This document shows, piece after piece, positions 1-21,456 of a stretch of DNA of 25,102 nt. The notes below the pieces were generated by a model. That model did not search any database, had not been told where the DNA came from, and worked only from the letters and a program-made list of their open reading frames with translations. This DNA is from a virus. Taxonomy: Duplodnaviria; Caudoviricetes. The stretch spans positions 1-25,102 of IMG/VR virus record IMGVR_UViG_3300045412_000768, one strand, 5' to 3'. A program made the position numbers and the translations under genes. Position 1 is the first letter of the stretch. Each line of letters opens with the position of its first letter.

Positions 1-669
1 CTAACGCACCCGCCGCCCGGTCCACACCACCCGACCGACCAGGCGGATTGCGTTGAGGGGCAAATCGTCCCAGCTCCTGTAATGCGGATTGTCGCTGATC
101 ACCGACACGCGCCCCGGCCCCGGCGCGCGCGCGACGCGCTTCACCATCAGCACATCGTCCATCCGCAGCACATAGATGCCGTCGCGCAGCCGGCCCGCGG
201 CGTCGCCGCCGTCGACCAGGATATCGTCGCCGTCGCTGAGCGTCGGGGCCATCGAATCGCCCTCGACGCGGATGATGCTGAGCGCGCGCGGGTCGGCGCC
301 GAGGTCGCGGAGCCATTTGGGATCGAACGCGACCTGTCCCTCCACCGTTTCGCCGTCGACACTCGCCCCCGCGCCCGCCGAAGCACCGATCGCGAGCTTC
401 GGCACCAGCACCATGTCGCCGCCGCGCGATCGCGTTGGCACCGCGACACGCGGCGCAGGGCCGCCGAGCAGCGCTTCCGACACGCCCAGATAGGCGGCGA
501 TGCGTGCGCGATCCTCCTCCGCCAGCCGGCGCGGCGAGCCACGCTTGATATATTGCTGGATATAGGCGGGGTTGCGCCCGATGCGCTGCGAGAGCTGCGC
601 ATAATCGACGCCCTTTTCGGTCAGCAGGCGGTCGAGCGTGGCGCGCGGGTCGAGATCGAAATCAGTCAT
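1..669 (-). CDS. CI/LexA-like repressor: N-terminal HTH + S24 peptidase domain (probably host flank)
   Basis: HTH-like YAQLSQRIGRNPAYIQQYI; putative Ala-Gly autocleavage region (ASAGAG); S24 catalytic motifs GDSMAPTL and MVKRV; ends VGRVVW. Confidence 0.9.
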   Translation of the reverse strand: MTDFDLDPRATLDRLLTEKGVDYAQLSQRIGRNPAYIQQYIKRGSPRRLAEEDRARIAAYLGVSEALLGGPAPRVAVPTRSRGGDMVLVPKLAIGASAGAGASVDGETVEGQVAFDPKWLRDLGADPRALSIIRVEGDSMAPTLSDGDDILVDGGDAAGRLRDGIYVLRMDDVLMVKRVARAPGPGRVSVISDNPHYRSWDDLPLNAIRLVGRVVWTGRRVR

Positions 670-1339: not shown

Positions 1340-2194
1340 TCAGCCGCCGCGGCCGCCCGAAATGATGAGCTCGGGGACGGCCTTCGCCTTGTCGTTTCCG
1401 CCGACCTGATAGGTGGTCCAAACCTCCTCAAAATCGAAGCCGGCGAAGATCTCGCGCACGTCCGGATGGTCGTTGAGACTGAGCAGGAAGCGCCCCCTGA
1501 TCGACGCCAGCAGCTGGGCCATTTCCTCGAACTCGGGACGCCCGAAAAGCGGCTTGCCGTCGTCACCGACGTAGTCCTTCTCCGACCCGTAGTAGGGCGG
1601 ATCGAGATAGAAGAGTGTGCCCGGACGGTCATAGCGGGCGATGAAGTCTGCCCAGGGCAGGCGTTCGATGACGACGGGGGCCAGGCGCTCATGCGCGGCC
1701 TCGAGCAGCGGTGCGAGCTTGGTGATGTCGAAGCGCGCGGCCGTCGTTGGCGAGACGCCGAAGGTTCGGCCGGACACCCTGCCGCCGAACGCATTCCGCT
1801 GGAGATAGAGGAAGCGCGCGGAGCGCTCCAGATCGGTCAGCGTGGTCGGATCGGTGCGGAGCAGCTGCTCGAAGCCGATGCGCGTCGTCAGCTGAAATCG
1901 AAGCATGTCCATGAACGCGACATAGTGCCGCTGCAGGATGCGAAAGAAGGTCGCGACATCGGCCGACCAGTCGTTGATCGCCTCCGCCTTCGGCCGATAG
2001 TCGCGGCGCAGAAAGATGCCGCCCATGCCGACGAACGGCTCGGCATAGGTGGTGTGCGGGATCGCGGCGATCCGCTGGACGATGACCTTCGCGAGGTTGC
2101 GCTTGCCACCGATATAGCCGGCGACGGGACGGGTGGGCGCGATGGGCAACAGCCCCGCGGCCGGAGTGAAAGACGGACTCGACACAGCTACCAA
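1340..2194 (-). CDS. D12-class (Dam-like) N6-adenine DNA methyltransferase; start is TTG 2194 or GTG 2185
   Basis: GYIGGKRNL, YAEPFVGMGG (SAM-binding), INDW, FYLDPPYY catalytic motif; terminal position like mom. Confidence 0.93.
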   Translation of the reverse strand: MVAVSSPSFTPAAGLLPIAPTRPVAGYIGGKRNLAKVIVQRIAAIPHTTYAEPFVGMGGIFLRRDYRPKAEAINDWSADVATFFRILQRHYVAFMDMLRFQLTTRIGFEQLLRTDPTTLTDLERSARFLYLQRNAFGGRVSGRTFGVSPTTAARFDITKLAPLLEAAHERLAPVVIERLPWADFIARYDRPGTLFYLDPPYYGSEKDYVGDDGKPLFGRPEFEEMAQLLASIRGRFLLSLNDHPDVREIFAGFDFEEVWTTYQVGGNDKAKAVPELIISGGRGG

Positions 2195-2195
2195 T

Positions 2196-2210
2196 GTTCC
2201 CTATTCGTTC
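2196..2210. promoter_or_regulatory. Alphaproteobacterial LexA (SOS) box GTTC-N7-GTTC
   Basis: GTTC CCTATTC GTTC, immediately upstream of the methylase start. Confidence 0.75.
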
Positions 2211-2482
2211 CCGCGTCCGGTCGGACAGGCGGGATGGTCCAGCTCCTCGATATCTAGAGCGGGACCGGTTGGGCCATGACGGCTGCTGTCCGTCGGATGA
2301 AGGGCGCGCCAACGCCCTTTCCCCCGCCTTCGACAGCGGGAATTGAGAATTAACGCCTGCGGTGCTATATGGGCCGGGCAACGGGCGCGACGCGGTGAAT
2401 TCTTCCCTCCGTAGCGCGAGGCCACTGGCCATCGACCGTTCAGCAGGGGACAGGAAGTCCCTGCCGCTCGTTGCCCCATCCC

Positions 2483-3718
2483 TCATGACCGGCGATTATC
2501 CAGCACGATGTCGAGATTGCGCGTCTCGGGCGTGATGTTGCGCGGGCGGCTCTTGTGGAAGCTGACGATGATCGGGAGCGCGTCGCCGCTGTCCTGGCGA
2601 ACAACGGCCTTCCAGATGCGCCCGGCCTCATCGGCGAAATAGACGAGCCGGCTGTCCCCCTGCTTCGCGATCACGATCGCGCGATCGATGATGTCGGGGA
2701 GCAGGCGATAGTCGCCGATCGTCAGTTCGGCGTGGCCCGCCGATATCTCCGGCGCCGCGCCGCTTTGCTTGCGATAGACGCCCGCGGGCATGACGACGAT
2801 GCGCGAGTTCGATCCGATCAGCGCCCGGTGCGCGTCATCGATGATGGCGACCGGAAACACGCCCTCGGGCATCGCGGCGAACTGTTCGAACGCGGGATCG
2901 TTGACCAGCTCGCGGAGCGTCTGGCGGGCGAGCTGGTCGAGGCCGGCGTCGAGCGCCGACGCCAGCGACGCGGTCGCGCGATCGGCGACGACGCGAAGAT
3001 GGGCGGTGCCGGGATTGTAGCCGAAGCCCGGCGCGATGCCTTCGGGCACTGAGACGATCTCGCCTGCGGCGGTGATGAAGTCGTGGCGCGGCGGATCGGG
3101 CGCCTCGCCGACCTTCCAGCCCATCCGCCGCATCCGGGCCTCGCTGACCTGTTCGACGCGGCAATTGCAGCCCCAGCCGTTCGGCGGGAAAAGCCACTGC
3201 CACGCGGGATGGTCGACCGGAAGGATCAGGCCGTGCCAGCTCTTGTGATTGAGGCGCGGGTGCTTGCGATAGTGGTCCGACAGGTAGCGGAGATAGGGGA
3301 ATAGCGCCTTTTCACGCTGATATTTGCGCCAGCGGCCCGCCGCGATGCTCATCCGCACGTTGGTGCGGTAGATAGTACGTAGACGGCGATCGTTGACTAC
3401 GACGGGTTCAGGCGTTCCGGTCAGCGCCTCGTTCTCCACGACGCCCCACCAGCCGTGCCTCTTCAGATCCGGCAGCAGATTGGCCTTCCACTGCTCGAAG
3501 GTGCCGCCGTTGCGGATGACGTCGTCGAGCGAGTTGCGGATCGAGACCAGGAGATCGAGCTTCGCGACCTTCGCCACGGTGAAGGCTGCGGCGTGCTCCT
3601 CCATCCATGTGTCGGTCCAATGCGTCGAGAAGAGATAGCCCGACCGCTCGGTCCAGGCGGCGACGATGTCGCCTGGGTCCATGTAAATCGTATCGGAGAG
3701 GATGGGGCGATCAGCCAC
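2483..3718 (-). CDS. Mu gpF-like head morphogenesis protein with C-terminal extension (PBECR2-like nuclease fold candidate)
   Basis: AFTVAKV, RLRTIYRTN, HKSWHGLILPVDHPAW, PPNGWGCNCRV, GFGYNPG; then ~170 extra aa with DYRLLPDII..WKAVV..IVSFHK. Confidence 0.9.
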   Translation of the reverse strand: MADRPILSDTIYMDPGDIVAAWTERSGYLFSTHWTDTWMEEHAAAFTVAKVAKLDLLVSIRNSLDDVIRNGGTFEQWKANLLPDLKRHGWWGVVENEALTGTPEPVVVNDRRLRTIYRTNVRMSIAAGRWRKYQREKALFPYLRYLSDHYRKHPRLNHKSWHGLILPVDHPAWQWLFPPNGWGCNCRVEQVSEARMRRMGWKVGEAPDPPRHDFITAAGEIVSVPEGIAPGFGYNPGTAHLRVVADRATASLASALDAGLDQLARQTLRELVNDPAFEQFAAMPEGVFPVAIIDDAHRALIGSNSRIVVMPAGVYRKQSGAAPEISAGHAELTIGDYRLLPDIIDRAIVIAKQGDSRLVYFADEAGRIWKAVVRQDSGDALPIIVSFHKSRPRNITPETRNLDIVLDNRRS

Positions 3719-3965
3719 AGGAGACCCCGGCGTTCACCCAATCCGCGCCGCGATCGGTCAGCTCCCAAAAATAGCTGTTAGGCACCGAATAGCGTTCCGA
3801 CCGACGAACCATTCCTGATTTTTCCAACGACTGCAGTCGGCGCGTGACGCGGCGAAGATGTCGATCGGGAATGCCGAGCCGATCAGCAACGTGATAAGCG
3901 CGACCGCCGTTTCGCAATGCCCGCGCGATGGAGTAGTCGGTCGGGAATTCCGTTGCTCCGGCCAT
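3711..3965 (-). CDS. Small winged-helix-like protein (84 aa)
   Basis: ATG coupled to the upstream TGA, with RBS; AYHVADRLG..VTRRLQSLEKSGMV..YFWELT. Confidence 0.6.
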   Translation of the reverse strand: MAGATEFPTDYSIARALRNGGRAYHVADRLGIPDRHLRRVTRRLQSLEKSGMVRRSERYSVPNSYFWELTDRGADWVNAGVSCG

Positions 3966-4078
3966 CACTGCCTCCGTTCGAACAGAAACCACACCGTGAA
4001 GTCGAGCGCCGCCTTCGCGACAAAACCGAGCAGGAAGGCGCGCACGAGGTCTGTTACGGAGAAGCATGTAGGGTCCAT
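3965..4078 (-). CDS. 37-aa hydrophobic peptide (not in ORF track)
   Basis: MDPTCFSVTDLVRAFLLGFVAKAALDFTVWFLFERRQ; TAATG and TGATG coupling at both ends, GGAGG RBS. Confidence 0.6.
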   Translation of the reverse strand: MDPTCFSVTDLVRAFLLGFVAKAALDFTVWFLFERRQ

Positions 4079-4350
4079 TACTGCCTCCGCTGGTTGGGCG
4101 CGTCGCCGCCCGCGATCATGTCGGCCATCGACTGCATCGCGCTGGCGTTCATGATGGCGACGGCTTCGAGCGCGAGTTCGGGCGTTGCAGCGCCGCGATG
4201 CAGGATCTTCGTGGCGGCGAAGCTGAGGGCCATCGCCGTCGTGATCTCGTCGAGGCCGAGGGACTTGGCTGCGGGAACGGTTTCGCGGACGAGAGCTTCG
4301 GCAAGTGCGCTCATGGCGACGGTCTCTTCTTGTGTCGGATGGCCCGTCAT
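4078..4350 (-). CDS. Hypothetical protein (90 aa)
   Basis: TGATG coupling and GGAG RBS; Ala-rich helical sequence. Confidence 0.65.
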   Translation of the reverse strand: MTGHPTQEETVAMSALAEALVRETVPAAKSLGLDEITTAMALSFAATKILHRGAATPELALEAVAIMNASAMQSMADMIAGGDAPNQRRQ

Positions 4351-4508
4351 CACTCCACTCCTTTGTTCCGCGATGAAAAAGGCTTGGCGGTCTGCATCAC
4401 ACGCAGAGTTTCATCGCGAGCCGGGTTCGGCTGGTTCATGATGTTGGACGGGCAGTCGCAACGTGGGCTGTGCTGTGACCGCCCGCATTGGGGGCATTTC
4501 GGGTCCAT
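4350..4508 (-). CDS. Small Cys-rich, possibly zinc-binding protein (52 aa)
   Basis: MDPKCPQCGRSQHSPRCDC; TGATG coupling at both ends. Confidence 0.55.
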   Translation of the reverse strand: MDPKCPQCGRSQHSPRCDCPSNIMNQPNPARDETLRVMQTAKPFSSRNKGVE

Positions 4509-4960
4509 CACTCCGCTCCCTCGGTAAGGGCGGCGCGTTGCTGTTCGACGCGGCGACGGTTCAACGTTGAGCGGATTGTGCAAAGCTTGGCGTGCAATCC
4601 TTGTCCGATACCCCAGTGGCTGCGCGAGTGTGATCGCTCGTTGATCTCGTCAATCAGCGCTATTGCTTCGTGAACTGCCATCCCGACGTCTCCGGAGAGG
4701 CCGTGCGATCCCTCCCCCGCATCGGCTTGCGATGGTCGTGAATGGGCGAGCATGGCTTCAAGCTCGGCGGGATCATCATAGGCATCTTGAGAGATCGCCC
4801 ACTGCCGTTCGATCTCGGCATCACTCAACGGGAACGGCGCCTTGTTGCCGTTGCTGATCATCGCTTCGGCGTAGCAAGCGCCAAAGCCCATCTCGAAAAA
4901 GAACTGCGCGGGGCTGCGTTCGTCCACCTGCGTCACAATCGTTTCATCGGTCATGGTCAT
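4508..4960 (-). CDS. Hypothetical protein (150 aa)
   Basis: ATGA overlap with the portal stop; GGAG RBS. Confidence 0.65.
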   Translation of the reverse strand: MTMTDETIVTQVDERSPAQFFFEMGFGACYAEAMISNGNKAPFPLSDAEIERQWAISQDAYDDPAELEAMLAHSRPSQADAGEGSHGLSGDVGMAVHEAIALIDEINERSHSRSHWGIGQGLHAKLCTIRSTLNRRRVEQQRAALTEGAE

Positions 4961-6996
4961 TCTCCATCGTCAGCATCGAGCGTGGCGGCGAGGCCTGCGG
5001 CCTCGAGGTCGGCGGCGATCGGGGCCTCGTCGCCGGGGGTGAGGCCGAGGGTGGCGAGCAGTTCCTCGGGCGAACGAGCGGCGCGAATAGCGCCGAGCAT
5101 CGGTTCGGTGAGCGCGCGGACGGCGCGGTAGCCGTCCTCGGCGATCAGATCGTCGACCAGCTTGTCGGTGGCGCTGTCGGGGGCTTCGGCCTGCGTCTCG
5201 GCGAAGCTCGCCTCGCGGATCCGCGTCTGCCAATCCTCCTCGAGCGGCTCGAACATCTCGGGGCCGAAGCGCAGCTCGCCGCGGAACGGCGTCACCTTCG
5301 ACAGGTCGACGTCGCCCTGCCAATAGGTGAAGGTGATGTGCGGCAGATAGTCGGGGTAATCCCAGCTGCAGCCGGCGTCGCGCATCTCGCGATTGCGCTG
5401 GTTGAGGTGGCCCGAGAAGAAGTGCAGCGCCACGGCGCCGTCGCTGCCGATGCGTTCGACCAGGCGCGGCCCGCCATAGGGTACGAGATGGTCGCTGGTG
5501 TCCGGTCCCCAGCCCCAGAAACCGCCCATCTTCATCCAGTTCACCGGGCGCCGCGAATACATCACGGTGGTGTGCAGATCCTTCGGGTCCATCAATCGGG
5601 TGAAGCCCTGCTCGCGCGCCCAGGCGAGCAGCTCGAGCGCGCTTTCCTCCTTCAGCGGCCGATGGACGTAAAGCGGGCGCGGATCGTCAGCCGCGAAGCT
5701 GATATTGCGGTCGTTGACGTTGGGATCGGCCTTTTCGGGCTGATCGTCCTCGCCGGCATCGGGATCGTCGACCTGGACGTCGTCGCCACCGGGGGCCGAG
5801 GTTTCCGATTTCGGCTTGCGGGCGTAGCCCTCGCCATAGGTGTCGTTGAAGCTCTCGTCGGTGCGCTGCCAGCCGAGCCGGTCGAGTACCTCGTCGGTTT
5901 GGGCGGTCTTTTGGACGTCCTCTTCCTCTTCGACCTGTCGCATGACGCGCGGCGCGGCGACGTCGGGGCCGAAATTCAGGTCGGTCCACCAACGCGCGAC
6001 CTCGGCGAAGCTGTCGGAAAGAAGGTCGGAGTCGGACTTGACCACCTCCATCTTCACATCGGCATGGACCTCGCCCTGGCTGCGGCTCGATCCGTTGTCG
6101 GTGGTCATCGTCTGCGACAGGACGATCTTCGCGATCGCGGCGTCCATGTAGCGGACCATCGTGCCGTAATCGGCGGTGCCCGATCGCGCGGCCTCGAGCA
6201 GATCGACCGCCATGCCCTCGGGGATCGTGATGCCGCTGTCGGTCGAGATCGCGCCGAGCGCCTCGAGCAGGCGCTCCTGGTCAGCCTTCGGAGTGCCGGG
6301 GCGATATTTGCCGATGGCGGTCGGCGAACCGAACTTGTCGAGAAAGATATTCCAGAAGCGGATGCCGTTGCGCTTGAACAGCGTCGGCCAGTAGAGCCAT
6401 TCGGCGAGGCCGCGGCCGTAGGGCTCGTCGTCGTTGGTACCGCCGACCTTGAACACCCAGAATTTGCGATCCGGCAAGATCTCGCCGAGGCCGCCGACCG
6501 ATGTCAGCAGGCGCAAGCGACCCTGGACGTCATAGCGGAACCGGCGGGCGTGGCGGACCTTGATCGCGCCGATGTCGATCAGGCCGTCGCGGACCTCCCA
6601 CATGATTTCTGCGACTGCAGGGCCGTAGAAGACCGCCCAGAGCATCTTGCCCGTGATGCGGTCCCAGCCGATGCGGTCGATCGTGTTGCTGAACGCCTCG
6701 GCCGCGGCGACAGATCGCGGGTCGGTTTCCTCGCCGGCCACGACGTCCCATGTCCGCGACACCACGGCGCCGCGGCGCTGCTGCATCGTCGAAAAGACCT
6801 GATCGTCCTGCAGGATGCGGTCGTAGATGCCCCAATCGACCGAGCCGGCGAGGCGCGGGTCTTTCGGTTCGCGCAGGCCAGTGATGAACGGCTGGGTGAT
6901 GTCGCGGCCGTCGGCCGTCGTGGCGATCTCGCCCGCCAGATCGGCGGGTAGCGTCGTCTTGGCAGCGCGGGTGCGCGTGCCCCTGGGACCAGTCAT
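4957..6996 (-). CDS. Mu gp29-like (DUF935) portal protein with inserted Acb1-like 2H phosphoesterase domain (aa ~435-598)
   Basis: Portal motifs PYGRGLAEWLYWP, FLDKFGSP, IAKIVLSQTMTT, GEVH; insert carries LHTTVMYS and YLPHITFTY; directly follows the terminase. Confidence 0.92.
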   Translation of the reverse strand: MTGPRGTRTRAAKTTLPADLAGEIATTADGRDITQPFITGLREPKDPRLAGSVDWGIYDRILQDDQVFSTMQQRRGAVVSRTWDVVAGEETDPRSVAAAEAFSNTIDRIGWDRITGKMLWAVFYGPAVAEIMWEVRDGLIDIGAIKVRHARRFRYDVQGRLRLLTSVGGLGEILPDRKFWVFKVGGTNDDEPYGRGLAEWLYWPTLFKRNGIRFWNIFLDKFGSPTAIGKYRPGTPKADQERLLEALGAISTDSGITIPEGMAVDLLEAARSGTADYGTMVRYMDAAIAKIVLSQTMTTDNGSSRSQGEVHADVKMEVVKSDSDLLSDSFAEVARWWTDLNFGPDVAAPRVMRQVEEEEDVQKTAQTDEVLDRLGWQRTDESFNDTYGEGYARKPKSETSAPGGDDVQVDDPDAGEDDQPEKADPNVNDRNISFAADDPRPLYVHRPLKEESALELLAWAREQGFTRLMDPKDLHTTVMYSRRPVNWMKMGGFWGWGPDTSDHLVPYGGPRLVERIGSDGAVALHFFSGHLNQRNREMRDAGCSWDYPDYLPHITFTYWQGDVDLSKVTPFRGELRFGPEMFEPLEEDWQTRIREASFAETQAEAPDSATDKLVDDLIAEDGYRAVRALTEPMLGAIRAARSPEELLATLGLTPGDEAPIAADLEAAGLAATLDADDGE

Positions 6997-8660
6997 AGCC
7001 CGTAACCTCCATCATTCTTGCGCGCGACGGTGCCGAAGCCGCGCTGGGTGAGTTCCATCTCGCCGCCCGTCGTCGCGCGGTTGCCGGAGCTGAGAAATTC
7101 GATGTCGCCGGGATCTTCGTTCGCGGCGGCGACGAGGTGCATTGCCGAGATCGCGGTATCGCCGTGGCGCTTCGCGATCTTGCCGTCCTCCTTGCTCGCG
7201 CGCGGCGAGTCGGGGATCTTCGGCACACCGCGCACCTGCTTGATCATCCGGATATCGTCGAGGACGCCCTCGTCGAACGGGAGGAGAAGGTTGCGGTCCT
7301 CGATGCCCGATTTGAGCAGCGGCATGTACTGCAGGTACGTCTTGTCGCTGGCCATCACCGCTTCGATGACATCGAAGCCGAACAGCATCTGCAGGGCTTC
7401 GGCGAGCGCCGAGCCGTTCCCGCGACCATCGACCTTGCCGCGCGCGAAGTGCGGCACGCGGTTGATCAGCCATTCGATGATGAACTGCTGATCCGAGAAG
7501 GGCACATTGCGCATCTCGAGCGTCAGGCGCGTTACGAGGCGCATGTATTCGTCATGCTGTCCGAACATGACGGGCGAGACGTCCCCGCTGCGCGCGAAAT
7601 CCTGCCCCATGAAAGTGCGGCGTGTGGGATCGAAATTCGCGAGCCAGGGCTTGACCTCGGCCTCGAGGAATTCGAGCAGCCAGTCGCGACGGCGATCCTC
7701 GTGCCAGCGCTCGAACCCGTCGGGGCAGCGCAAGCGGACGACGGGCAAGTCCTTCGACATCGCCTCGAGGATCGTGGCGCGGGCGAGATAGGTACCCGAC
7801 CCGCGCGACGGAATCACGTCCAGCTCTTCGTCCGCGGCCTCGAGATAGGATTTGCGGATGCCCGCTTCCCATGCCTGCTCGGCCTCCAGCGTCCATTCCT
7901 TGCCGTTGACCAGGCAGATGCGTTTGTAGAGGCCCGCGGCGATCGCGTCCTTCAGGGTGATGCGCTGGACGTAGCCGGCGCGCTTGCCCGCGCGGATCTC
8001 CTCGATCAGCGTATTGAAATAGTTATCGGTCCCGTCGTGGGTCGAAATCACGATGACCTGGCCGCCCCACATCAGGGCCGCGAGGATGGCCTTGATCAGC
8101 TGCTCGAGGTTGTCGTGAAAGGCCGCTTCATCGATGATGAAGATGCCCTGCTTGCCGCGCACCGATCGAGGGCTCGACGGGAGGGCTGCGACGGCCTTGC
8201 CTGAGGGGAAGTCCACGCGGAAAGCCTTCACCGACTTGCCCGCGTCGCCGTTGATCAGGAAGCCACCCTGCGCTTCGGTCACCACCTGATCGCGGCGATA
8301 ATCGGCGTCCTTGGCGTCGACCAGGACATCGCCTTTGGCATCGAGGAAGCTGCCATCCTCGCGCTTCACGACGTAAGCGACATTTTCGTCCGGCAGCGAC
8401 ACGACGACATCGTCGAAGGCCTTTGCGAAATCGGCGCAATAGCCGATGAATTCGCGGGCCATGTCGAGGTTGTAGCCGATGTAATAGACGTTCTGCGGCG
8501 CACGCGCGGCCGAGGCGGCGAGATCAGCATAGGGCGCGAACGCATAAGACAAGCCGATGCGACGGGACTTCTCGACGATCAGCAGCTGATGCTCGTCGGC
8601 CAGGGCAAGGCTTTCCTGCTGGTATGGGAGCAGGACTTCGGGGGCGGCTACCTCCGACAT
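6993..8660 (-). CDS. Terminase large subunit (Mu gp28-like); start at 8660 rather than 8999
   Basis: LLPYQQ, KSRRIGLS (Walker A region), IIDEAAFH (Walker B), ISTHDG, GQDFARSGD, HGD. Confidence 0.93.
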   Translation of the reverse strand: MSEVAAPEVLLPYQQESLALADEHQLLIVEKSRRIGLSYAFAPYADLAASAARAPQNVYYIGYNLDMAREFIGYCADFAKAFDDVVVSLPDENVAYVVKREDGSFLDAKGDVLVDAKDADYRRDQVVTEAQGGFLINGDAGKSVKAFRVDFPSGKAVAALPSSPRSVRGKQGIFIIDEAAFHDNLEQLIKAILAALMWGGQVIVISTHDGTDNYFNTLIEEIRAGKRAGYVQRITLKDAIAAGLYKRICLVNGKEWTLEAEQAWEAGIRKSYLEAADEELDVIPSRGSGTYLARATILEAMSKDLPVVRLRCPDGFERWHEDRRRDWLLEFLEAEVKPWLANFDPTRRTFMGQDFARSGDVSPVMFGQHDEYMRLVTRLTLEMRNVPFSDQQFIIEWLINRVPHFARGKVDGRGNGSALAEALQMLFGFDVIEAVMASDKTYLQYMPLLKSGIEDRNLLLPFDEGVLDDIRMIKQVRGVPKIPDSPRASKEDGKIAKRHGDTAISAMHLVAAANEDPGDIEFLSSGNRATTGGEMELTQRGFGTVARKNDGGYGL

Positions 8661-9082
8661 TGGCGCATCCCCTTCCGGCGCTTGGTGTGGGGCAGGCAGC
8701 GGACGGTTGCGTCGGCGTCGAACCATTCGGCGGCGCCGGAGACGATGCGGTCGATCATCGAACAGCCGAGGGCGAGGCCCGAGCTGCCGTCGAAGCTGAC
8801 AAAATCGAGGTGCGGCATCGCGTGGCCGGTGCGACGCGGGCGAAGGTGGTTCGAGATCCGCATCCGCCACTGGCGGCCCGCGGCGTCGCGCATTGTGAGG
8901 TAGAGGCTGGCCGAGATTTTCGCCCGGCTGCGCTCCAGCTTGTCGATCTTCAGCCCCTTCGCCTGGGCATGGTCGCGCAACGCATAGGCGAGCTTCCACG
9001 GCACGGGCGCAAATACGCCGTCCTCGGGCCGCCTGCCGGCTGCGCGCATATAGGCGCGCGGCGAGGCCGGCGCCGCCTTCAC
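8648..9082 (-). CDS. Hypothetical basic protein between gp27 and terminase
   Basis: GTGA-coupled to the gp27 stop; fills the gap to the terminase; SLYLT..WRMRISNH. Confidence 0.65.
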   Translation of the reverse strand: MKAAPASPRAYMRAAGRRPEDGVFAPVPWKLAYALRDHAQAKGLKIDKLERSRAKISASLYLTMRDAAGRQWRMRISNHLRPRRTGHAMPHLDFVSFDGSSGLALGCSMIDRIVSGAAEWFDADATVRCLPHTKRRKGMRQCRR

Positions 9083-9606
9083 TTCGCCTTCATGCCGAGG
9101 ATCTGGCGGCGGATGACGTCGATCTGCGCATCGCCGACGCCGGCATCCTTCGCGGCGGCCGCGGCGGCGTCGGCCGCCTTGTTGCGTTCGCTGGCGCGGA
9201 TTTCGTCCTCGAACGCGCGCTTGTCGCGCATCGCCTTGATCACGCCGCCCAGCGACCGGACGAGCTTGGCGATCCGGTCGGGGCTGGCGGGCTCGTCCTC
9301 GTCGCCCATCGTGTCGAGCGCGCGCAGCACTTCGGATTGCGCGCGGTGGATCGCGATATCGATCAGCCCGGTGTCGACGCCATCGGGCAGGTGCTTGTGC
9401 ATCGCCTGCCGGACGGCGCGGTCGCGGATGATCGTTTCGACCATCGGGCGGTAGCGGTTGGCATAGCGGCCGACGGCCGAGCGCGAGACGCCATATTCGG
9501 CGACCGCTTCATGGATATCGTCGATCGAGTGCTCGCCCTCGGCGATCAGCTTTTCGACGGCGGCCTGAAGCGCGGGATTTTTCTCGATCGAGGAGCGGGG
9601 CGCCAT
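9079..9606 (-). CDS. Mu gp27-like (DUF3486) protein, putative small terminase
   Basis: MAPRSSIE, VSRSAVGRY, C-terminal IRRQILG; position before terminase. Confidence 0.85.
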   Translation of the reverse strand: MAPRSSIEKNPALQAAVEKLIAEGEHSIDDIHEAVAEYGVSRSAVGRYANRYRPMVETIIRDRAVRQAMHKHLPDGVDTGLIDIAIHRAQSEVLRALDTMGDEDEPASPDRIAKLVRSLGGVIKAMRDKRAFEDEIRASERNKAADAAAAAAKDAGVGDAQIDVIRRQILGMKAK

Positions 9607-9607
9607 G

Positions 9608-9898
9608 TCATTCCCCCGTCTTGTGGGGGCTGACGCCTTCGTATCGCATCGTGCCCGCCGCAATCGCGCGCCCGAGCTTGGTCGAGGACACGACGGTGTA
9701 AGCGGGATATTTTTGCACCTTAAGCAGTTCCTTGGCGCCGAGCCAGTCGAATTCGTCGACGACGTCAGGCGCGCCGACGCGGTGGCCCAGCTCGTTGAGC
9801 AGAATGGTGACGTCGTCGTCGTTCACCTCGCCGCCGACATCGAGGACGAGGTCGAGGATCGCGCGCCGGATCAGCGGGCGGATTTTTTCGTGGAGCAT
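9608..9898 (-). CDS. Mu gp26-like protein
   Basis: RRAILDLV..LGH..DWL..GRAIAAG..EGV pattern; TGATG coupling; synteny. Confidence 0.8.
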   Translation of the reverse strand: MLHEKIRPLIRRAILDLVLDVGGEVNDDDVTILLNELGHRVGAPDVVDEFDWLGAKELLKVQKYPAYTVVSSTKLGRAIAAGTMRYEGVSPHKTGE

Positions 9899-10257
9899 CA
9901 GCGTGCTCCCTGCGGAAGCGCGAGTGCCTGGATCCACTGGCTCTGCGATTTCATGTGGCGTTCGATCGATTCGAAGCTGCCCTCCAGGCGGCTGAGGCGC
10001 TCGATCGCATTGCCGATCTTGTCGAGCACCTGTGCTCGGGTCGGTTCGCTGTCGATGTCGTTGTCGATCTGGCTTACGCGCTGCTCGAGCAGTTCGACCT
10101 TGGTCTCGAGAGTGGCGATCTTGACCTGCGCCTGGTTGAACGCGGCGACATCGGGGAACTTGGTCCGGAGCCAGAGAAGGCCGATCGCGAGGAGGACCGG
10201 CGTCATGACGACCGCGATCGGCCAGAGCGTTGAAATCCAACCAAAGACGGTAATCAT
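9898..10257 (-). CDS. Mu gp25-like (DUF2730) membrane-anchored coiled-coil protein
   Basis: N-terminal TM segment followed by coiled coil (LEQRVSQID..PT); synteny with gp26/27. Confidence 0.75.
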   Translation of the reverse strand: MITVFGWISTLWPIAVVMTPVLLAIGLLWLRTKFPDVAAFNQAQVKIATLETKVELLEQRVSQIDNDIDSEPTRAQVLDKIGNAIERLSRLEGSFESIERHMKSQSQWIQALALPQGAR

Positions 10258-10346
10258 GAAACCCCCAGATGCGGATGCAATCTGCGGCGCCTTTCAGGCG
10301 CCGCGCGTGGAGGTCACAGTGTCATGGGTGGCCGATGCGGGCCGGT

Positions 10347-10360
10347 GTCCGTCAGCGGAC
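10347..10360 (-). promoter_or_regulatory. Putative late-activator site of the leftward packaging operon
   Basis: Palindrome GTCCG-TCAG-CGGAC; near-identical copy at 19046-19059. Confidence 0.6.
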
Positions 10361-10717
10361 GGGGGGCGAAGAAAGTCCAGCAAGTTCGAGGAGTTCAGCC
10401 TCGGTGATATTGCGGCTGGCGCCGCCCGGCCATGTCGCGAGATAGACCAGGGGCTGGCCGGGGATCAAGCGTCGGCATGGTTCGACATAGATGCCGCGGC
10501 CGAGCAGAATCGCCGCGGCCTGATAGGTCGGATCGAGTATCTCCATCGCGTCCTGCGACAGGAAATCCCGGATCGCTTCGCCGCCATCGCGCGCCTTGAG
10601 GGCCGCCCACAGGCGGCGCGCAAGATACTTCACGATGATCGCGGGAGGGTCTTCCGCCGCCCGCACTGCCATTGAGCGCGCAAGCGCGATCGTTTCGGGG
10701 CGAGGCCGGCGCGTCAC
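10352..10717 (-). CDS. Hypothetical protein (121 aa)
   Basis: GTGA-coupled to the upstream gene; continues the operon. Confidence 0.65.
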   Translation of the reverse strand: MTRRPRPETIALARSMAVRAAEDPPAIIVKYLARRLWAALKARDGGEAIRDFLSQDAMEILDPTYQAAAILLGRGIYVEPCRRLIPGQPLVYLATWPGGASRNITEAELLELAGLSSPPVR

Positions 10718-11003
10718 TGCGGATCAGCCGACGGGGCGAACATATCGAGCTGGCGCGGGTCGACGCGCGAGCGCTTCGGCACATAGGGTGCCGCTTCTTC
10801 GCCTTCGCTCGTCCCGTTGACGAGGTGGCTCAGATAGCTGCGCGACGTTTTGAGGATAGGCACGGCGTCGGCGATCGTCATCTTCTTTTCGCGGATCGCG
10901 GCGATGACGCCCGCCCGGCGCGCCTCGTCCAGGGCGGCGCGGCCGACCGGGACGCGCAGCACGTTGCCGCGTAGGCGGCCTCGTCGGGGAGATAGTGGCT
11001 CAT
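10714..11003 (-). pseudogene. Mor/C-like late transcription activator, apparently frameshifted near 10970
   Basis: RBS-supported, ATGA-coupled start MSHYLPDEAAY is out of frame with GNVLRVP..MTIADAVPILKTSRSYLSHLV..QLDMF. Confidence 0.6.
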
Positions 11004-11263
11004 GCAATCCTCCAGCAGCGGACGATCGAATTCGCGCGGTCGATCTGGGTCGAGAAATCGCGGCCGTTCTTGCGCTTCCACGACGCGGCGGCGCAGGAGA
11101 TGCGGCGATAGGCCTTGTCGGTGTTGCCGTCGCTGGACAGTTCCCCGGTCAACGGGACGCTAAAGCTGTCGCCGACCTCCATTTCGCCGAAGGGATAGAC
11201 GATCTTCCCGCTCATCTTGGGCGCGCGCGGCATGGGGATGCCGCGTTCGACGACGATGCTCAT
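11000..11263 (-). CDS. Phage-type hypothetical protein (87 aa)
   Basis: GIPMP..YPFGEMEVGDSFSVP..VRCWRIA; ATGA coupling at both ends. Confidence 0.75.
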   Translation of the reverse strand: MSIVVERGIPMPRAPKMSGKIVYPFGEMEVGDSFSVPLTGELSSDGNTDKAYRRISCAAASWKRKNGRDFSTQIDRANSIVRCWRIA

Positions 11264-11535
11264 TTCGGTTCTCCATGGTTGCGGCGCGCCAGCTCGGCGC
11301 GCAGGTCGGCGGTCGGCACCTCGGCAAGCGAATGCGACGTGAGCGAGAGGCCACGGTGGCGGCCTTCCTTGCGGAACAACTTGCCCTCGCGGACGAGCGC
11401 ATCGACGATGCGCGAGGTGGAGGATTTGCTCTTGTGGCCGAGGGCTTCGCGGATCTCGTCGTACGACGGGCCGACGCCCGTTATCTCGATCCGCTCGCGC
11501 ACATAGTCGAGCACCTTCAACTGGTTGGGGGTCAT
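11260..11535 (-). CDS. Stand-alone LexA DNA-binding (winged HTH) domain protein
   Basis: TPNQLKVLDYVRERIEITGVGPSYDEIREALGHKSKS..R..ALVREG; no S24 domain. Confidence 0.8.
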   Translation of the reverse strand: MTPNQLKVLDYVRERIEITGVGPSYDEIREALGHKSKSSTSRIVDALVREGKLFRKEGRHRGLSLTSHSLAEVPTADLRAELARRNHGEPK

Positions 11536-11723
11536 GAAATCACCTCATATTCAGCGATGTCGAAAGGGGAGCCAGTCAGCGTCCAGCGGCAGCCGCCCCG
11601 CCCGTCGGCGGGCCATCCGGGTGCGGCGCCAGGCACGTCGGTGGCCATCGATCCGTCGGCCAGACGCACGCGGACGCGCTTGCCTTCGGCCTCCTCGGGG
11701 CAATGGCCGGGGTTCGGCTTCAC
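11532..11723 (-). CDS. Hypothetical protein (63 aa)
   Basis: GTGA/ATGA coupling; KPNPGHCP..RVRVRLADG..RW..PFDIAEYEV. Confidence 0.65.
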   Translation of the reverse strand: MKPNPGHCPEEAEGKRVRVRLADGSMATDVPGAAPGWPADGRGGCRWTLTGSPFDIAEYEVIS

Positions 11724-12109
11724 AGCGCGAACTGCGGTTCGACGTCGACGACGGCGGGTTCGGCGCCCTTGATCGCGCGCGCGATCGCGAGGATCAGTGG
11801 CAGGAGCTGGCGAAACTCGCCGTCGGTACCGAGGCGCAATTTGCCGCGGTTGTAGGAACATATGATGGCCGCATGGTTGCGGCCGCCGAGGTCGCGAGCG
11901 ATCGCCGACCAGTTCTTTTCGAACACGTCGACCGCGGCGACGACGATCGCATCGCGAAGCGTGACGGCCCAGGGCGCACGCCCCGGCCCCACGAGGATCG
12001 CGGGGTCGGTGCCGCCGATCTCGGCCGCCGCCGCCACCAGCTGGGGCATCCAGCGATGGAAGCGGTGGACGCGAAGCGTTACGGCTTCGGTTACTGTCGC
12101 CTCGCGCAC
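11720..12109 (-). CDS. DnaA C-terminal-like (domain IV) HTH protein
   Basis: ILVGPGR..LRDAIV..WSAIARDLGGRNHAAII resembles the DnaA GGRDHTTV motif; GTG start with GGAG/GAGG upstream. Confidence 0.65.
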   Translation of the reverse strand: MREATVTEAVTLRVHRFHRWMPQLVAAAAEIGGTDPAILVGPGRAPWAVTLRDAIVVAAVDVFEKNWSAIARDLGGRNHAAIICSYNRGKLRLGTDGEFRQLLPLILAIARAIKGAEPAVVDVEPQFAL

Positions 12110-12360
12110 AGCGCCTCTCCCAGCTTGGCGGCGTCGACGGCGCCGCGCGCGATCGACGGCAGGTGGTCGGCGAGCAGGCCGCAGAACTCCTCGGCGCTCG
12201 CCTGATCGAGGCGGGCAACCATCACGCGGTTTCCGCCATGCTCGGCGATGGTGAAGCACAGCTGGCCGTCGATCACGGCGATGCCGAAGCTGCCCTGATT
12301 GTCGCCGTGGAATACGGCGGTCATCGTGGTGCGGGCGGGGACGGTGAGGAAACTGCTCAC
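12091..12360 (-). CDS. Hypothetical protein (89 aa)
   Basis: GTGA coupling; GGAGG upstream. Confidence 0.6.
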   Translation of the reverse strand: MSSFLTVPARTTMTAVFHGDNQGSFGIAVIDGQLCFTIAEHGGNRVMVARLDQASAEEFCGLLADHLPSIARGAVDAAKLGEALCARRQ

Positions 12361-12632
12361 AGCGTGAACCTCCCGGCCTGATCCGCCCCGACGGGCGATT
12401 TCACCTGCGGATTGCTGGCCATTTCGGTAAGGAACTGCGCGATGCCGTCGGCGTTGACGAAGGTGTCGCCGACGACGCTGAGGCGCCCCGCTACGGGATG
12501 ATCGGTGTGCGCGGCCCAGGCGCCGATCACCGCCATGCCGTCGGGTTGCGGCCAGATGCCGACAGTCCACCCGTTTGCGAGCTGCAGCAGGAGGCGATCG
12601 GCGCCGCGCGCCGAGCATTCGACCTTGATCAT
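12357..12632 (-). CDS. Hypothetical protein (91 aa)
   Basis: ATGA overlap with the gam stop; GGAGG RBS; MIKVECSARG. Confidence 0.65.
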   Translation of the reverse strand: MIKVECSARGADRLLLQLANGWTVGIWPQPDGMAVIGAWAAHTDHPVAGRLSVVGDTFVNADGIAQFLTEMASNPQVKSPVGADQAGRFTL

Positions 12633-13231
12633 GGCCGTGCCTCCACGATCTCGGGCTCCGGCACGTCGACGACGTCGGGGTCGGCTTCCTTCGGCGCGGC
12701 GCGATCGATGAAGAATTCGTCGCCCTGGGCGACGGTGAAGCCCAGCTCGCGCAGGCGAAGCGTGATCGGGCAGACCGACGTCGTGACGTTCAGCCGCTTG
12801 ACGATCTCCTTCTTCTCCAGCTCGATCTTGGTGCGCAGCAGCTCCTTCGCACCTGGCCATGTCGCGACGATCGCCTGGACCAACAGCACGGCGTCAGCAT
12901 CCTTCTTGACCCCCTTCGGGTTCTTGAGTTTGCCGGGCGTCATGCGCAGGCCGATGTTCGCGCCGGCCAGCTCGATCGACTTACGATCCTTGGCGATGTC
13001 AGGGCCGGCGACGGACCACCATGCGCGGAGCTGAAGGAAGATATTCTCGACCTCGGCACCGAACGGCGCGACCAGTTCGTCGCGGGTCGCCTGGATCGCG
13101 GCGATCGCCTTGTCGGCTTCGGCGACCGCGGCGGCGATTTCATGCTCGAGCACGAGGTAACGTTCGATGAGCGCGATCGCTTCGGGCAGAGTCGAGGGTG
13201 CGGTTTGGGGTTTGGACTTGCGGCGGGCCAT
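12629..13231 (-). CDS. gam: Mu Gam-like host-nuclease inhibitor
   Basis: N-terminal coiled coil, RKSIEL..IGLRMTP, LLRTKIELEK, G..V.Q.DEFFI; position in the early operon. Confidence 0.85.
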   Translation of the reverse strand: MARRKSKPQTAPSTLPEAIALIERYLVLEHEIAAAVAEADKAIAAIQATRDELVAPFGAEVENIFLQLRAWWSVAGPDIAKDRKSIELAGANIGLRMTPGKLKNPKGVKKDADAVLLVQAIVATWPGAKELLRTKIELEKKEIVKRLNVTTSVCPITLRLRELGFTVAQGDEFFIDRAAPKEADPDVVDVPEPEIVEARP

Positions 13232-13241
13232 ATCGATCCCT

Positions 13242-13352
13242 TCAGATCAGCGGAGTGAACAGGATGGCGGCGGCCACGAGGACGCCGGCCAGGATGAGGG
13301 TTGCCCCGATCGCCAGGCGCGATGCGGCTGAAGGCGGCGGATCGGCGATCAC
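13242..13352 (-). CDS. 36-aa single-TM peptide
   Basis: MIADPPPSAASRLAIGATLILAGVLVAAAILFTPLI; GTGA coupling. Confidence 0.55.
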   Translation of the reverse strand: MIADPPPSAASRLAIGATLILAGVLVAAAILFTPLI

Positions 13353-13465
13353 GGGCCGACCGCCAGGACGGCGCCGACGACGAGCCAGACGGCGGGGAAG
13401 AGCCACGCGAAGCCGATGGCGGCGCTGCGCCATTGCTGGGCGCGCGTGGGGAGCGGGGCGGTCAC
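13349..13465 (-). CDS. 38-aa single-TM peptide (not in ORF track)
   Basis: MTAPLPTRAQQWRSAAIGFAWLFPAVWLVVGAVLAVGP; GTGA coupling at both ends, GGAGG RBS. Confidence 0.6.
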   Translation of the reverse strand: MTAPLPTRAQQWRSAAIGFAWLFPAVWLVVGAVLAVGP

Positions 13466-13869
13466 GCGCAGGCCTCCAGCTCGTGCCCATGCCCGTCAGT
13501 GTTGTTCGGGCATGTCGGACAGTGGCGGCGATGCTGGTGGTGCATCAGGTTGACGGGCGGAGCGGTTCGGCGACGGGCGTGCATGCAGCTGGCGAGCGGG
13601 ATCGGGCCCCAGATCGGACAGTCGACCTGTTCGCCGCCCCATGCGGCGCGGACGAGCTTTTCGGCCTCGGCAAGATCGCCGTTGTAGGTGTTGCTGATGA
13701 CCCGGCTGACGTAGCCGCTCGAGCGCCCGATCTTCTCGCCGGCCTCGCGCTGGTTCGTCGCGTCGCAGGCAGTCGCGAGCAGCTGGACCCAGCGCGGCAT
13801 GTCGGCACCCCACGCAGATCGCGCGCGGTCGAGGTTGCTTAAGTCCTTGTTATTAACCTTAACAGACAT
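13462..13869 (-). CDS. Early HTH regulator with Cys-rich C-terminus (Mu-like phage type)
   Basis: NQREAGEKIGRSSGYVSRVISNTYNGD; VDCPIWG..C..CPTC. Confidence 0.8.
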   Translation of the reverse strand: MSVKVNNKDLSNLDRARSAWGADMPRWVQLLATACDATNQREAGEKIGRSSGYVSRVISNTYNGDLAEAEKLVRAAWGGEQVDCPIWGPIPLASCMHARRRTAPPVNLMHHQHRRHCPTCPNNTDGHGHELEACA

Positions 13870-13871
13870 GG

Positions 13872-14579
13872 TTAACTTACCCCCCCATCCAGCGCGGCTG
13901 CGGTGGACGATCCTGATGTGGTCGACGTGGCCCGCCCGGCGGATGCCGCGTCGCGGCTGCGCTGGCGGCGGACGGGCAGTTCGATGACCGTTCCGTCCAG
14001 ATGGTCGGTGATGCGGATGATCGCGCCCTCGGCGGCGGCGATCCGCGATATGGTCGGTGCGACCGATCCCCAGGGCCGCGCGGCCGCGGTGCTCCATCCG
14101 GTCGCGGTACGACGGAGCCAGCCGCCGCGCTGCAGCACGCCCAGCATCTGTCGGGCGGCTTGTTCGTTGGCCCGCGCGGTCATGGTCAGCGTGGGCAGGT
14201 CGAAATGTTTGAGGATGCGCATCGCGGACCAAAGGCGCTGGTGTTGGGTGCGCTTTGGAAACGGATTGCGCCGCAGGGTGTTTGGAAAGGCAGGCGGCGA
14301 CGCCATGTTCAGATATGTCCTTTCGAGCGAATAGAGGGCAGGTGTTCCGGTGGCCGCGACCATGCCTGCCGCGACCCAGCGCACGATCGTGCGCTCCAGG
14401 TAGCGGAAGGTCTGGCCCCGCTTCGGGTGGGCACCCTCGCAATGGCGAATGGCGCCGATCAGCAGGGTGAAGAGGTCGACCGGCGCGGCGGCGAAACGCA
14501 GCTCGCTCCACAGCGCCTGGTCGGGGTCAGCGAGCGCCGGGTTGGGTGCCCAGCGGGTGGTGGTCGCGATCGCGCTCAT
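13872..14579 (-). CDS. Early DNA-binding protein (tandem winged-helix-like)
   Basis: QRLWSAMRILKHFD motif; ATGA coupling; downstream of B. Confidence 0.75.
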   Translation of the reverse strand: MSAIATTTRWAPNPALADPDQALWSELRFAAAPVDLFTLLIGAIRHCEGAHPKRGQTFRYLERTIVRWVAAGMVAATGTPALYSLERTYLNMASPPAFPNTLRRNPFPKRTQHQRLWSAMRILKHFDLPTLTMTARANEQAARQMLGVLQRGGWLRRTATGWSTAAARPWGSVAPTISRIAAAEGAIIRITDHLDGTVIELPVRRQRSRDAASAGRATSTTSGSSTAAALDGGVS

Positions 14580-19096: not shown

Positions 19097-20083
19097 ATGA
19101 CGATTGAAACCGCCACCGACAAGCCGTTGAAGCCGATCCGGATATTCCGGAAAGGGACGTTCACGTCGGTCGAGGGCGACCAGATCACCTTCGGTGAAGC
19201 CGAGCTGGCGGGCATCGTCTCCAGCTATAACGCCGAAGCCAACCCCGCGCCGCTGGTCGTCGGGCATCCCAAGCTCAACGATCCGGCCTATGGCTGGGTC
19301 GATCGTCTGGCGATCGAGGATGGCGAGGTTGTCGCCTATCCGGATCCAAAGCTGACCGAGCCGGCGTTCGCCGAGGCTGTCAATGCCGGGCGCTATCGCA
19401 AGATCTCCGCGCAATTCTATCCGCCCGCCAACGCCAACAACCCGGTGCCGGGCGAATATTACCTGAAGCATGTCGGCTTCCTCGGCGCGCACCCGCCCTC
19501 GGTCAAAGGCCTGGGCACGGTGAGCTTCGCCGACGGCGATGTCGGCCCCCTCGTCACCTTCGAACAGGAGAATGTCATGTCGGACAGCAACGACAAAGAT
19601 CGCGAAAGCAAGGATAAGGAAGTCAGCTTCGCCGAGCGCGAGAAGGCGCTCAGCGACCGCGAGGCCGCGATCAAGGCGCGCGAGGATGCGGCCAACGAAA
19701 AGGCCGCGGCGGATCGTCACGACGCCAATGTCAGCTTTGCCGAGGGGCTTTTCGCCGCCGCGAAGATCAAGCCCGAGGGCAAGGATCTGCTGATCGGCGT
19801 GCTCGACGCGCTGGGCGAATCGAACGCCGACACGATCAGCTTTGGCGAAGGCGCCGAGCTGACGCCGCGCGATGCGCTGGTCAAGCTGCTCGATGCGGCG
19901 CAGCCGCTCGTCAGCCTGGGCGAGGCCGCGGCCGACGACGGCAAGGCGATCGGCGAGCTCGATCCCGCCGCTATCGCCGAAGAGGCCGCCTCGTTTGCCG
20001 AGAGCGAAGCCAAGGCGGGTCGCCCGATCTCGACGGCGCGCGCCGTCCGTCACGTCACCGAAAAAGCAAAGAAGGGAGCATAA
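19097..20083 (+). CDS. Prohead protease/scaffold (Mu gpI-like)
   Basis: IFRKGT, APLVVGHP..PAYGWV, YRKISAQFY, YLKHVGFLGAHPPSVKGL; acidic coiled-coil C-half. Confidence 0.9.
   Translation: MTIETATDKPLKPIRIFRKGTFTSVEGDQITFGEAELAGIVSSYNAEANPAPLVVGHPKLNDPAYGWVDRLAIEDGEVVAYPDPKLTEPAFAEAVNAGRYRKISAQFYPPANANNPVPGEYYLKHVGFLGAHPPSVKGLGTVSFADGDVGPLVTFEQENVMSDSNDKDRESKDKEVSFAEREKALSDREAAIKAREDAANEKAAADRHDANVSFAEGLFAAAKIKPEGKDLLIGVLDALGESNADTISFGEGAELTPRDALVKLLDAAQPLVSLGEAAADDGKAIGELDPAAIAEEAASFAESEAKAGRPISTARAVRHVTEKAKKGA
19577..20083 (+). CDS. Putative nested in-frame scaffold protein (Mu gpZ-like)
   Basis: Internal AGGAG RBS before in-frame ATG (M161, MSDSNDK). Confidence 0.6.
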   Translation: MSDSNDKDRESKDKEVSFAEREKALSDREAAIKAREDAANEKAAADRHDANVSFAEGLFAAAKIKPEGKDLLIGVLDALGESNADTISFGEGAELTPRDALVKLLDAAQPLVSLGEAAADDGKAIGELDPAAIAEEAASFAESEAKAGRPISTARAVRHVTEKAKKGA

Positions 20084-20087
20084 TCCG

Positions 20088-20526: not shown

Positions 20527-21456
20527 ATGTCTCTGTCCGCCTACCCCATCGATCCGCACCTCACCGCGATCGCCATCGCCTACAGGAATGCGGCCTATAT
20601 CGCCGACCAGGTGCTGCCGCGCGTGCGCGTCGGCAAGCAGAAGTTCACCTTCCTGCAGTATGCGTCGGATCAGTACTTCAACATCCCCGACACGCTGGTC
20701 GGGCGCCGGTCGAAGCCGAACGAGGTCAACCTCGAGGCGACCGAGGTGACCGACTCGACGTTCGACTATGCGCTCGATGGCGGCATCCCCAAGGCCGACG
20801 AGGATAACGCCGACGAGCGTTACGATCCGCTGGGCAGCGAAGTCGAGTTCCTTCAGGAACTGATCGCCCTCGATCGGGAGGCGCGCGCAGCCGGTCTGGT
20901 GTTCACCAACGGCAACTACAACGCCGGCCTGCGCCAGACGCTCTCGGGCACGTCGCAGTTCAGCGACTATGCCAACAGCACGCCGATCAAGAAGATCAAC
21001 GAGGCGCTGGACCTTCCGCTCGTCCGCCCGAACCAGATGGTGTTCGGTCAGGAGGGGTGGACTTCGTTCCGCCAGCACCCCGAGATCGTCGAGGCGGTGC
21101 TCGGCACCGGCGCAAAGAAGGGCAATGTGACGCGCCAGGCCGTGGCCGAGCTGTTCGAGGTCGACGAAGTCGTCGTCGGCGCTTCGCGCAGCAACTCGGC
21201 CAAGCGCGGACAGGCTCCGGCGCTGACGCGGTTGTGGGGCAAGCATCTGGCGCTGACCCACAAGGCGCCGGTTCCCGAAGCGAAGGGCGCGCTGCAGTTC
21301 GGTGCCACCTTCCAGTGGGGCGACCGCATCGCTGCCCAGTGGGAAGACAAGAATATTGGCATGCGGGGCGGCACGGCCTGCCGTACCGGCGAGAGCGTCA
21401 AGGAACGCATCGTCGCGAACGACGCCGGCTACTTCTTCAACAACGCCTTCGCCTGA
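20527..21456 (+). CDS. Major capsid protein
   Basis: IDPHLTAIAIAYRN..IADQVLPRV, LDRE.R, PN.MV.G..W...RQHP; GAGGAG RBS; synteny. Confidence 0.9.
   Translation: MSLSAYPIDPHLTAIAIAYRNAAYIADQVLPRVRVGKQKFTFLQYASDQYFNIPDTLVGRRSKPNEVNLEATEVTDSTFDYALDGGIPKADEDNADERYDPLGSEVEFLQELIALDREARAAGLVFTNGNYNAGLRQTLSGTSQFSDYANSTPIKKINEALDLPLVRPNQMVFGQEGWTSFRQHPEIVEAVLGTGAKKGNVTRQAVAELFEVDEVVVGASRSNSAKRGQAPALTRLWGKHLALTHKAPVPEAKGALQFGATFQWGDRIAAQWEDKNIGMRGGTACRTGESVKERIVANDAGYFFNNAFA

Follow-up and report, generated by a model that had tools for sequence, protein, structure and literature searches.

We found that the Mu-type portal protein encoded in the window (the whole stretch of 25,102 nt that was analysed) carries an Acb1-family 2H phosphodiesterase domain as an internal insertion, which lies between the acidic linker behind the portal core and the native helical tail and is bracketed by two copies of an S-F-A motif. 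Because the bracketing motif also repeats in the phage's own head protease, it is likely, as judged from the sequences, that the enzyme is released by cleavage while the head is assembled. Fusions of portals with 2H enzymes are already known (2017, 2022) on three portal families, including the solved Pam3 portal; the new element seems to be the layout alone, with motifs on both sides and probable cleavage. The features on which the argument is built are given below in window coordinates.

4957..6996, minus strand: Mu-type portal gene with inserted Acb1 cassette, 679 aa (Pfam and PHROG matches)
5833..6828, minus strand: portal core, PF06074, aa 57–388 (Pfam; the predicted model matches the JBD30 and Mu portals)
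5701..5820, minus strand: acidic, low-confidence linker, aa 393–432 (composition; pLDDT <50 over 396–437)
5692..5700, minus strand: upstream S-F-A motif, S433-F434-A435, predicted head-protease site (from motif conservation)
5224..5676, minus strand: Acb1-family 2H phosphodiesterase domain, PF23474, aa 441–591 (profile, fold, residues)
5200..5208, minus strand: downstream S-F-A motif, S597-F598-A599, predicted head-protease site (from motif conservation)
4960..5199, minus strand: helical C-terminal tail, aa 600–679, common to insert-less Mu-type portals (relatives; model)
19097..20083, plus strand: head maturation protease/scaffold, PHROG 976, B3/BcepMu-type, with four S-F-A copies; predicted cutter
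6993..8999, minus strand: terminase large subunit gene, directly upstream of the portal gene (Pfam, PHROG)
9079..9663, minus strand: terminase small subunit gene (Pfam, PHROG)
2483..3718, minus strand: MuF minor head protein, downstream of the portal gene after small variable ORFs (Pfam, PHROG)
20527..21456, plus strand: major capsid protein (PHROG 1005)

The window covers the left portion of a Mu-like, transposable phage genome with genes for transposase A and B, Gam, Ner-like and CI-like repressors, both terminase subunits (terS, terL), portal, MuF, Dam, head protease, capsid, neck proteins, gp27 and gp36. We observed that the Portal_Mu profile (PF06074, gp29/DUF935) matches aa 57–388 of the portal with an E-value of 7.9e-100 (334.9 bits, Pfam), that the ORF matches PHROG 113 (portal) and PHROG 755, and that the predicted model of the core matches the portals of JBD30 (8rka, Z 20.9) and Mu (9knu, Z 20.4). 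With the full profile, a portal fold and a terL-portal-MuF context in a transposable phage the protein is a Mu-type portal, as a preceding sequence-only reading had recognized from its DUF935 core; in NCBIfam the portal had no match. An identical portal is encoded by another IMG/VR record of 37.6 kb. The closest named relatives are found in sphingomonad genomes (80% for a Sphingomonadales MAG, 74% for Sphingopyxis), and judging from these relatives the host is probably a sphingomonad.

Behind the core follows an acidic linker (aa 393–432, 12 D/E versus 5 K/R), as the sequence-only reading had stated, which is predicted to be disordered and is divergent in sequence across the relatives (alignment A1). 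Next to it, the Acb1 profile PF23474 matches aa 441–591 with an E-value of 6.4e-37 and 126.9 bits against a cut-off of 27, spanning model positions 2–143 of 144 (Pfam). The Acb1-like 2H domain had been placed at about aa 435–598, which is exactly window 5203–5694, and the profile match bears this out. Its paired HxT motifs, H475-T477 and H553-T555, had been named correctly as well and are the only two in the ORF (codons of H475 at 5572–5574 and of H553 at 5338–5340). They are the equivalents of the catalytic tetrad of T4 Acb1 (H44, T46, H113 and T115 correspond to H475, T477, H553 and T555), and the two histidines are kept in 118 and 117 of 119 Mu-type domains. Altogether eight of the nine T4 Acb1 residues named by Hobbs 2022 are kept (Y443, H475, T477, Y547, H553, T555, E583, W589), including the stacking aromatics Y12, F107 and W147 (Y443, Y547 and W589) and the adenine contact E141 (E583); the equivalents of E141 and of the lid residue W147 are found in 114 and 108 of the 119 Mu-type domains. 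The exception is T4 W74, which belongs to the four stacking aromatics: no aromatic residue stands at its place here, where E514 or, in the other register, I516 is aligned. The position of E514 is D/E in 113 of the 119 domains; the invariant W487 might substitute for W74. As W74 is not kept, the substrate specificity may differ from that of T4 Acb1.

The closest sequence matches in the PDB are aa 468–619 of the Pam3 portal (E 5.7e-25) and FBB1 Acb1 (E 1.5e-8). For structure comparisons we used an AlphaFold model of the full-length portal (mean pLDDT 66), in which the domain reaches mostly 70–92 per block of ten residues, with a weak loop at 491–499. In the Foldseek comparison with Acb1, which the sequence-only reading had proposed as a check, Acb1 7T26 ranked first among the 2H folds (E 7.9e-8, target TM-score 0.78), followed by 7T27, PDE-9 (0.64) and then LigT (E 1.7e-4, 0.54). 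A second structural aligner gave 7T27 with Z 15.4 and an rmsd of 2.3 Å over 136 residues (model range 440–593). The domain thus shares the 2H fold, the HxT/HxT tetrad and the equivalents of Y12, F107, E141 and lid W147 with Acb1 of T4 (gp57B) and FBB1 (PMC9117128; PDB 7T26/7T27; PF23474), although the identity is 26–28% in structural alignments, and T4/FBB1 Acb1 is a stand-alone protein of 152 aa and not an internal portal insert as here. Since dN/dS within the domain is 0.02–0.33 (15 pairs of 6 genes), the domain is under purifying selection and its presence in the portal is not a chance match. We rejected a LigT/RNA-ligase assignment: no LigT family match was found at E<=0.1, and LigT ranked below Acb1 and PDE-9. 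The label 'RNA ligase' of PHROG 755 is the annotation of T4 57B as well. In PADLOC the domain had no match. By profile, fold and tetrad the domain is a member of the Acb1 family, and by analogy to Acb1 it is predicted to hydrolyse adenosine-containing cyclic oligonucleotides.

The sequence-only reading had also described a short helical C-terminal segment. A helix is indeed predicted (about aa 609–676, AlphaFold model), but it had been overlooked that this is the native tail of Mu-type portals: insert-less relatives have the linker, one S-F-A-type motif and then the same helical tail. Acb1 is therefore an internal insertion and not a C-terminal addition. The tail aligns weakly, below threshold, to aa 446–490 of the JBD30 portal, and an ESM Atlas search with it gave no usable match. 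On both sides the domain is bracketed by S-F-A (S433–A435 and S597–A599). The strict upstream motif is found in 101 of 118 full-length Mu-type carriers (the 119 relatives minus one truncated protein), where 0.19 are expected from shuffles, and the strict downstream motif in 93 (1.43 expected), with 91 carriers having both. All 24 full-length insert-less sisters have one copy (16 strict, 8 variants; read by eye), the remaining five of 29 domain-less portals being four that end before the site and one, P0158, with a different insert. In the latter protein (609 aa) about 90 aa, HTH-like by eye, stand between two motif-like sites in the Acb1 slot; the insert had no NCBIfam or PADLOC match. SFA occurs once more within the portal core, at S329 in a predicted helix, and cutting can therefore not be deduced from the motif alone; context must matter.

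The head protease/scaffold of the window contains SFA four times, and its closest cultured relatives are of the B3/BcepMu type. Across 10 cognate head proteases, which are related and thus not independent, the motif occurs 3–5 times in each compared to 0.08–0.17 expected (p<=0.0005), and 7 of the 10 SFA occurrences in 29 window genes fall in portal and protease. The protease had no NCBIfam and no PDB match, and in the literature we found no documentation of the cut site of a B3/BcepMu-type head protease. A comparable pairing exists in Mu (gp29/protease I), B3 and BcepMu, which have the same portal family and repeat a linker or tail motif in protease/scaffold. The Mu portal linker ends in ALSA (428–431) and Mu protease I contains ALSA three times (0.035 expected); in B3 and BcepMu a single F-A-E in the portal tail is matched by five such motifs in the protease. 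Mu differs in having ALSA and another protease, the present phage in its gene layout and in a protease of the B3/BcepMu type; the Mu gp29 tail carries no cargo and is absent from virion models. In the Mu virion model the last 124 residues of gp29 are missing and may be cut by protease I (PMC11915804, partial text), and the aligned ranges of the Mu and JBD30 virion portal models stop at 388–401. The sequence-only reading had tied the nuclease to the dodecameric portal. A lasting tie is not supported, as the domain lies between predicted protease sites in the tail region absent from these virion models.

Two further portal families gave an additional control. In PF06381 portals, which we take to be DUF1073, Acb1 is preceded by xDA in 15 of 15 cases (TDA in Pam3), and in PF04860 portals by K-S/A in 8 of 9. 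The xDA motif was observed 127 times in the matching protease/scaffolds compared to 60 expected, with 11 of 25 proteins individually significant; this control is weaker because xDA is only about twofold enriched and 12 of the same 25 proteins contain SFA too. The HK97 protease cuts after lysine, and in two PF04860 phages K-A is found where the capsid delta domain appears to end. We regard S-F-A as a putative head-protease site.

With regard to gene order, the minus-strand region 1340–17740 holds the transposase/Gam genes and, further downstream, terS-terL-portal-MuF-dam, and protease, capsid and neck genes (19097–25102, plus strand) run the opposite way from the repressor. Gam before terL-portal-MuF is the order also in loci L001–L012, unlike in B3 and BcepMu. 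This opposed layout may allow portal-Acb1 to be made before the protease. A promoter and terminator scan was not above shuffles (4 versus 2.5 and 16 versus 12.2). Between portal and MuF (3711–4960, minus strand) we observed a slot of small ORFs (150, 77, 91 and 118 aa, the last with weak HTH matches) whose content varies among relatives; these may be genes with accessory or counter-defence roles. CI-like repressors (PHROG 4) are encoded twice, at 1–669 (minus strand), a gene found in several relatives too, and at 17755–18459 (plus strand) beside the Ner-like gene. Directly after the capsid gene, 21565–22245 (plus strand) holds an ORF of 226 aa that combines two repeats of DUF7210 with a long run of Pro-Thr dipeptides.

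How widely the arrangement is distributed was analysed with domain and portal core separately. The domain search gave 165 matches, and the best 120 consist of 96 Mu-type portals, 15 PF06381 portals and 9 PF04860 portals. The portal–Acb1 fusion itself is thus common and no discovery, and the novelty that had been considered for a fusion to a Mu-type portal was overstated. Among cultured phages the best matches are mostly portal genes, followed by T4-like 57B genes (144 records, 60 of them listed). The survey of DUF935 proteins that had been suggested could be carried out for the near clade: the portal-core search gave 1,740 matches, and of the best 120, which represent the near clade and not all DUF935 proteins, 91 have the Acb1 domain and 29 do not. 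In the domain tree 116 of the 119 Mu-type domains form one group (support 0.83), and three stand apart with weak support.

The cassette is present or absent among otherwise similar portals. In one pair, P0019 and P0122, 389 of 390 core positions (99.7%) agree, and a gap of 161 residues at the motif sets the two apart. In a phylogeny of 146 cores, from which two N-truncated proteins were left out and in which four of the 29 domain-less labels are uninformative truncations, the cassette label changes 24 times; 500 shuffles gave 26.8 changes on average and never fewer than 23. Gain or loss has therefore been repeated. The cassette is mosaic as well: relative to L001 the core of this portal is 90% and the domain 72% identical, while relative to four other loci the core is 72–75% and the domain 83–87% identical. 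In some PF06381/PF04860 portals (L041:3712-6417, L045:8013-10460, L055:7992-10259, L059:6597-8621) about 55–250 aa follow Acb1, so cargo can be stacked. One apparently free-standing protein of the same Acb1 subfamily (P0178, 149 aa) has about the size of the predicted excised product and comes from a contig of only 1.4 kb. Annotations pointed to two other fusions, which we rejected. Roseobacter phage DSS3P8 gp129 (L104:3995-4447) is annotated as 'prohead protease', but it is a stand-alone Acb1-like protein of 150 aa and no fusion of the two; for a putative Acb1–MuF fusion in HMSP1, the match sits in the gene before MuF.

Considered as a class, such fusions are not novel, since they are in print (PMC5512222 and PMC9503650, both partial text), exist in cultured phages and have been solved as PDB 8HDS. 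Iyer 2017 described 2H domains fused to MuF or portal that could degrade nucleotide signals, and Iyer 2022 described the same 2H fusions and proposed packaging and injection into the next host. These fusions are of the same type as the one reported here, with a proposed role against nucleotide-based immunity; the accessible text of both papers names no portal family, internal insertion or head-protease sites, and the 2017 set may include Mu-type examples. The PF06381 portals (cyanophage Pam3 gp3, PDB 8HDS; Pseudomonas phiPSA1; Rhizobium RHEph04) and the HK97-type PF04860 portals have the same Acb1 subfamily, which stands after a linker that ends in a short family-specific motif. There, however, Acb1 is mostly terminal with one upstream motif (xDA or K-S/A), whereas the present portal carries it internally, between two S-F-A motifs and ahead of the native tail. 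The Acb1 domain is unmentioned in the accessible main text and supplement of the Pam3 structure paper, and 8HDS was not among the structural matches listed for the portal model. The word 'portal' does not occur in the accessible main text and supplements of Hobbs 2022 (PMC9117128), nor 'portal' or 'fusion' in the accessible main text of the Doherty 2025 preprint. Searching full-text literature, with most subscription journals outside its scope, we found neither a description of an internal, doubly flanked Acb1 insert nor of protease release of a portal-borne Acb1; a bench test of portal–2H fusions was not found in full-text literature either.

We propose that the portal precursor would be built into the prohead with its Acb1 insert and that the head-maturation protease would cut at both S-F-A copies during prohead maturation, which would yield a portal core of ~48 kDa, free Acb1 of ~19 kDa and a tail of ~8 kDa. 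Acb1 would destroy CBASS cyclic di- and trinucleotides late in infection and would work mainly in the producing cell at head assembly, first on the unprocessed portal and then free. Through the fusion each portal subunit would bring along one enzyme, correctly timed and with no extra gene needed, and the upstream cut site would keep the mature portal crown unobstructed. That the enzyme is excised at both motifs and acts late in the producing cell seems to us rather probable. CBASS activation is reported to be determined by late virion assembly (bioRxiv 2023.05.21.541620, partial text), and cleavage by prohead proteases reportedly activates CD-NTases (PMC12991175, partial text). Being encoded in the same ORF, the enzyme is by construction made together with the portal, as the sequence-only reading had assumed, and is therefore in the cell at the assembly stage that is reported to trigger CBASS. 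CBASS cyclases occur in the likely host family, but of 151 sampled genomes only 16 have a SMODS match that reaches the cut-off (11 with E<1e-7), and 3 have Acb1. The Sphingobium faniae genome contains a portal–Acb1 prophage and a CBASS cyclase with a HORMA gene (L106:1483-2921).

Other readings concern the place where the enzyme acts. It might be cut free, kept in the head, ejected with the DNA and act in the next host, which is the packaged-effector model proposed by Iyer et al. for 2H–portal and 2H–MuF fusions (PMC5512222, PMC9503650, partial texts); small procapsid pores, 13–15 Å in JBD30 (PMC11445458, partial text), would trap a folded enzyme and thus favour packaging over release into the cytoplasm. 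Once trapped, the cut enzyme could serve within proheads as a sink for nucleotides or else be carried over into the next host. The geometry fits packaging as well, since the portal crown faces the capsid interior and the portal C-terminus follows the crown. However, at most about 12 copies would reach the next host, the folded 19-kDa domain would presumably need to pass through portal and tail channel, and the reported activation of CBASS comes late, at virion assembly, so that we consider delivery to the next host unlikely. Still less probable appears a reading in which S-F-A is a scaffold/protease docking motif or an insertion scar and Acb1 remains attached to the portal dodecamer of mature virions. 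The two S-F-A copies share an 8-bp DNA stretch that could be mere recombination ends, and the Pam3 PDB entry lists the full 621-aa sequence, but the upstream SFA is kept in most carriers within an otherwise divergent linker, the Mu and JBD30 virion models stop near residue 401, and the Mu gp29 tail is reported as possibly cleaved.

Just as doubtful is an active 2H enzyme with a different target, i.e. other signalling nucleotides, RNA ends with 2',3'-cyclic phosphate or RNA itself. The missing W74 and the label of PHROG 755 would fit such a target; viral 2H enzymes of the Acb1-related group vary in substrate (Doherty 2025 preprint, partial text), and Iyer 2017 proposed RNase activity too (PMC5512222, partial text). 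However, Acb1 is the closest fold with LigT far weaker, the E141 and lid W147 equivalents are widely kept, the scanned ORFs of the window include no RNA ligase, and all nine further Acb1 homologues tested by Hobbs cleaved cGAMP and cAAA (PMC9117128, partial text).

Returning to excision and late action in the producing cell as the preferred reading, our analysis adds three points that make the mechanism directly testable: a motif on either side of the domain, the recurrence of this motif in the phage's protease, and naturally occurring portal pairs of which one member lacks the domain. The vague idea of a packaged effector is turned into sharp predictions, namely two cut sites and products of ~48, 19 and 8 kDa, and the portal pairs, 99.7% identical in their cores and differing in the cassette, are available for comparison. 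As a tentative generalization, about which we are clearly less confident, the portal tail might be a protease-addressed cargo slot, in which unrelated portals would independently attach Acb1 via the site of their own protease, so that the protease that trips CBASS would also free the antidote; the duplicated site of the Mu-like portals would make the cassette removable, gained and lost between near-identical portals and able to hold other cargo. If excision of the cassette is real, counter-defence would be linked to the reported trigger of CBASS, the prohead protease, and further cargo hidden in head proteins could be traced by a sequence rule.
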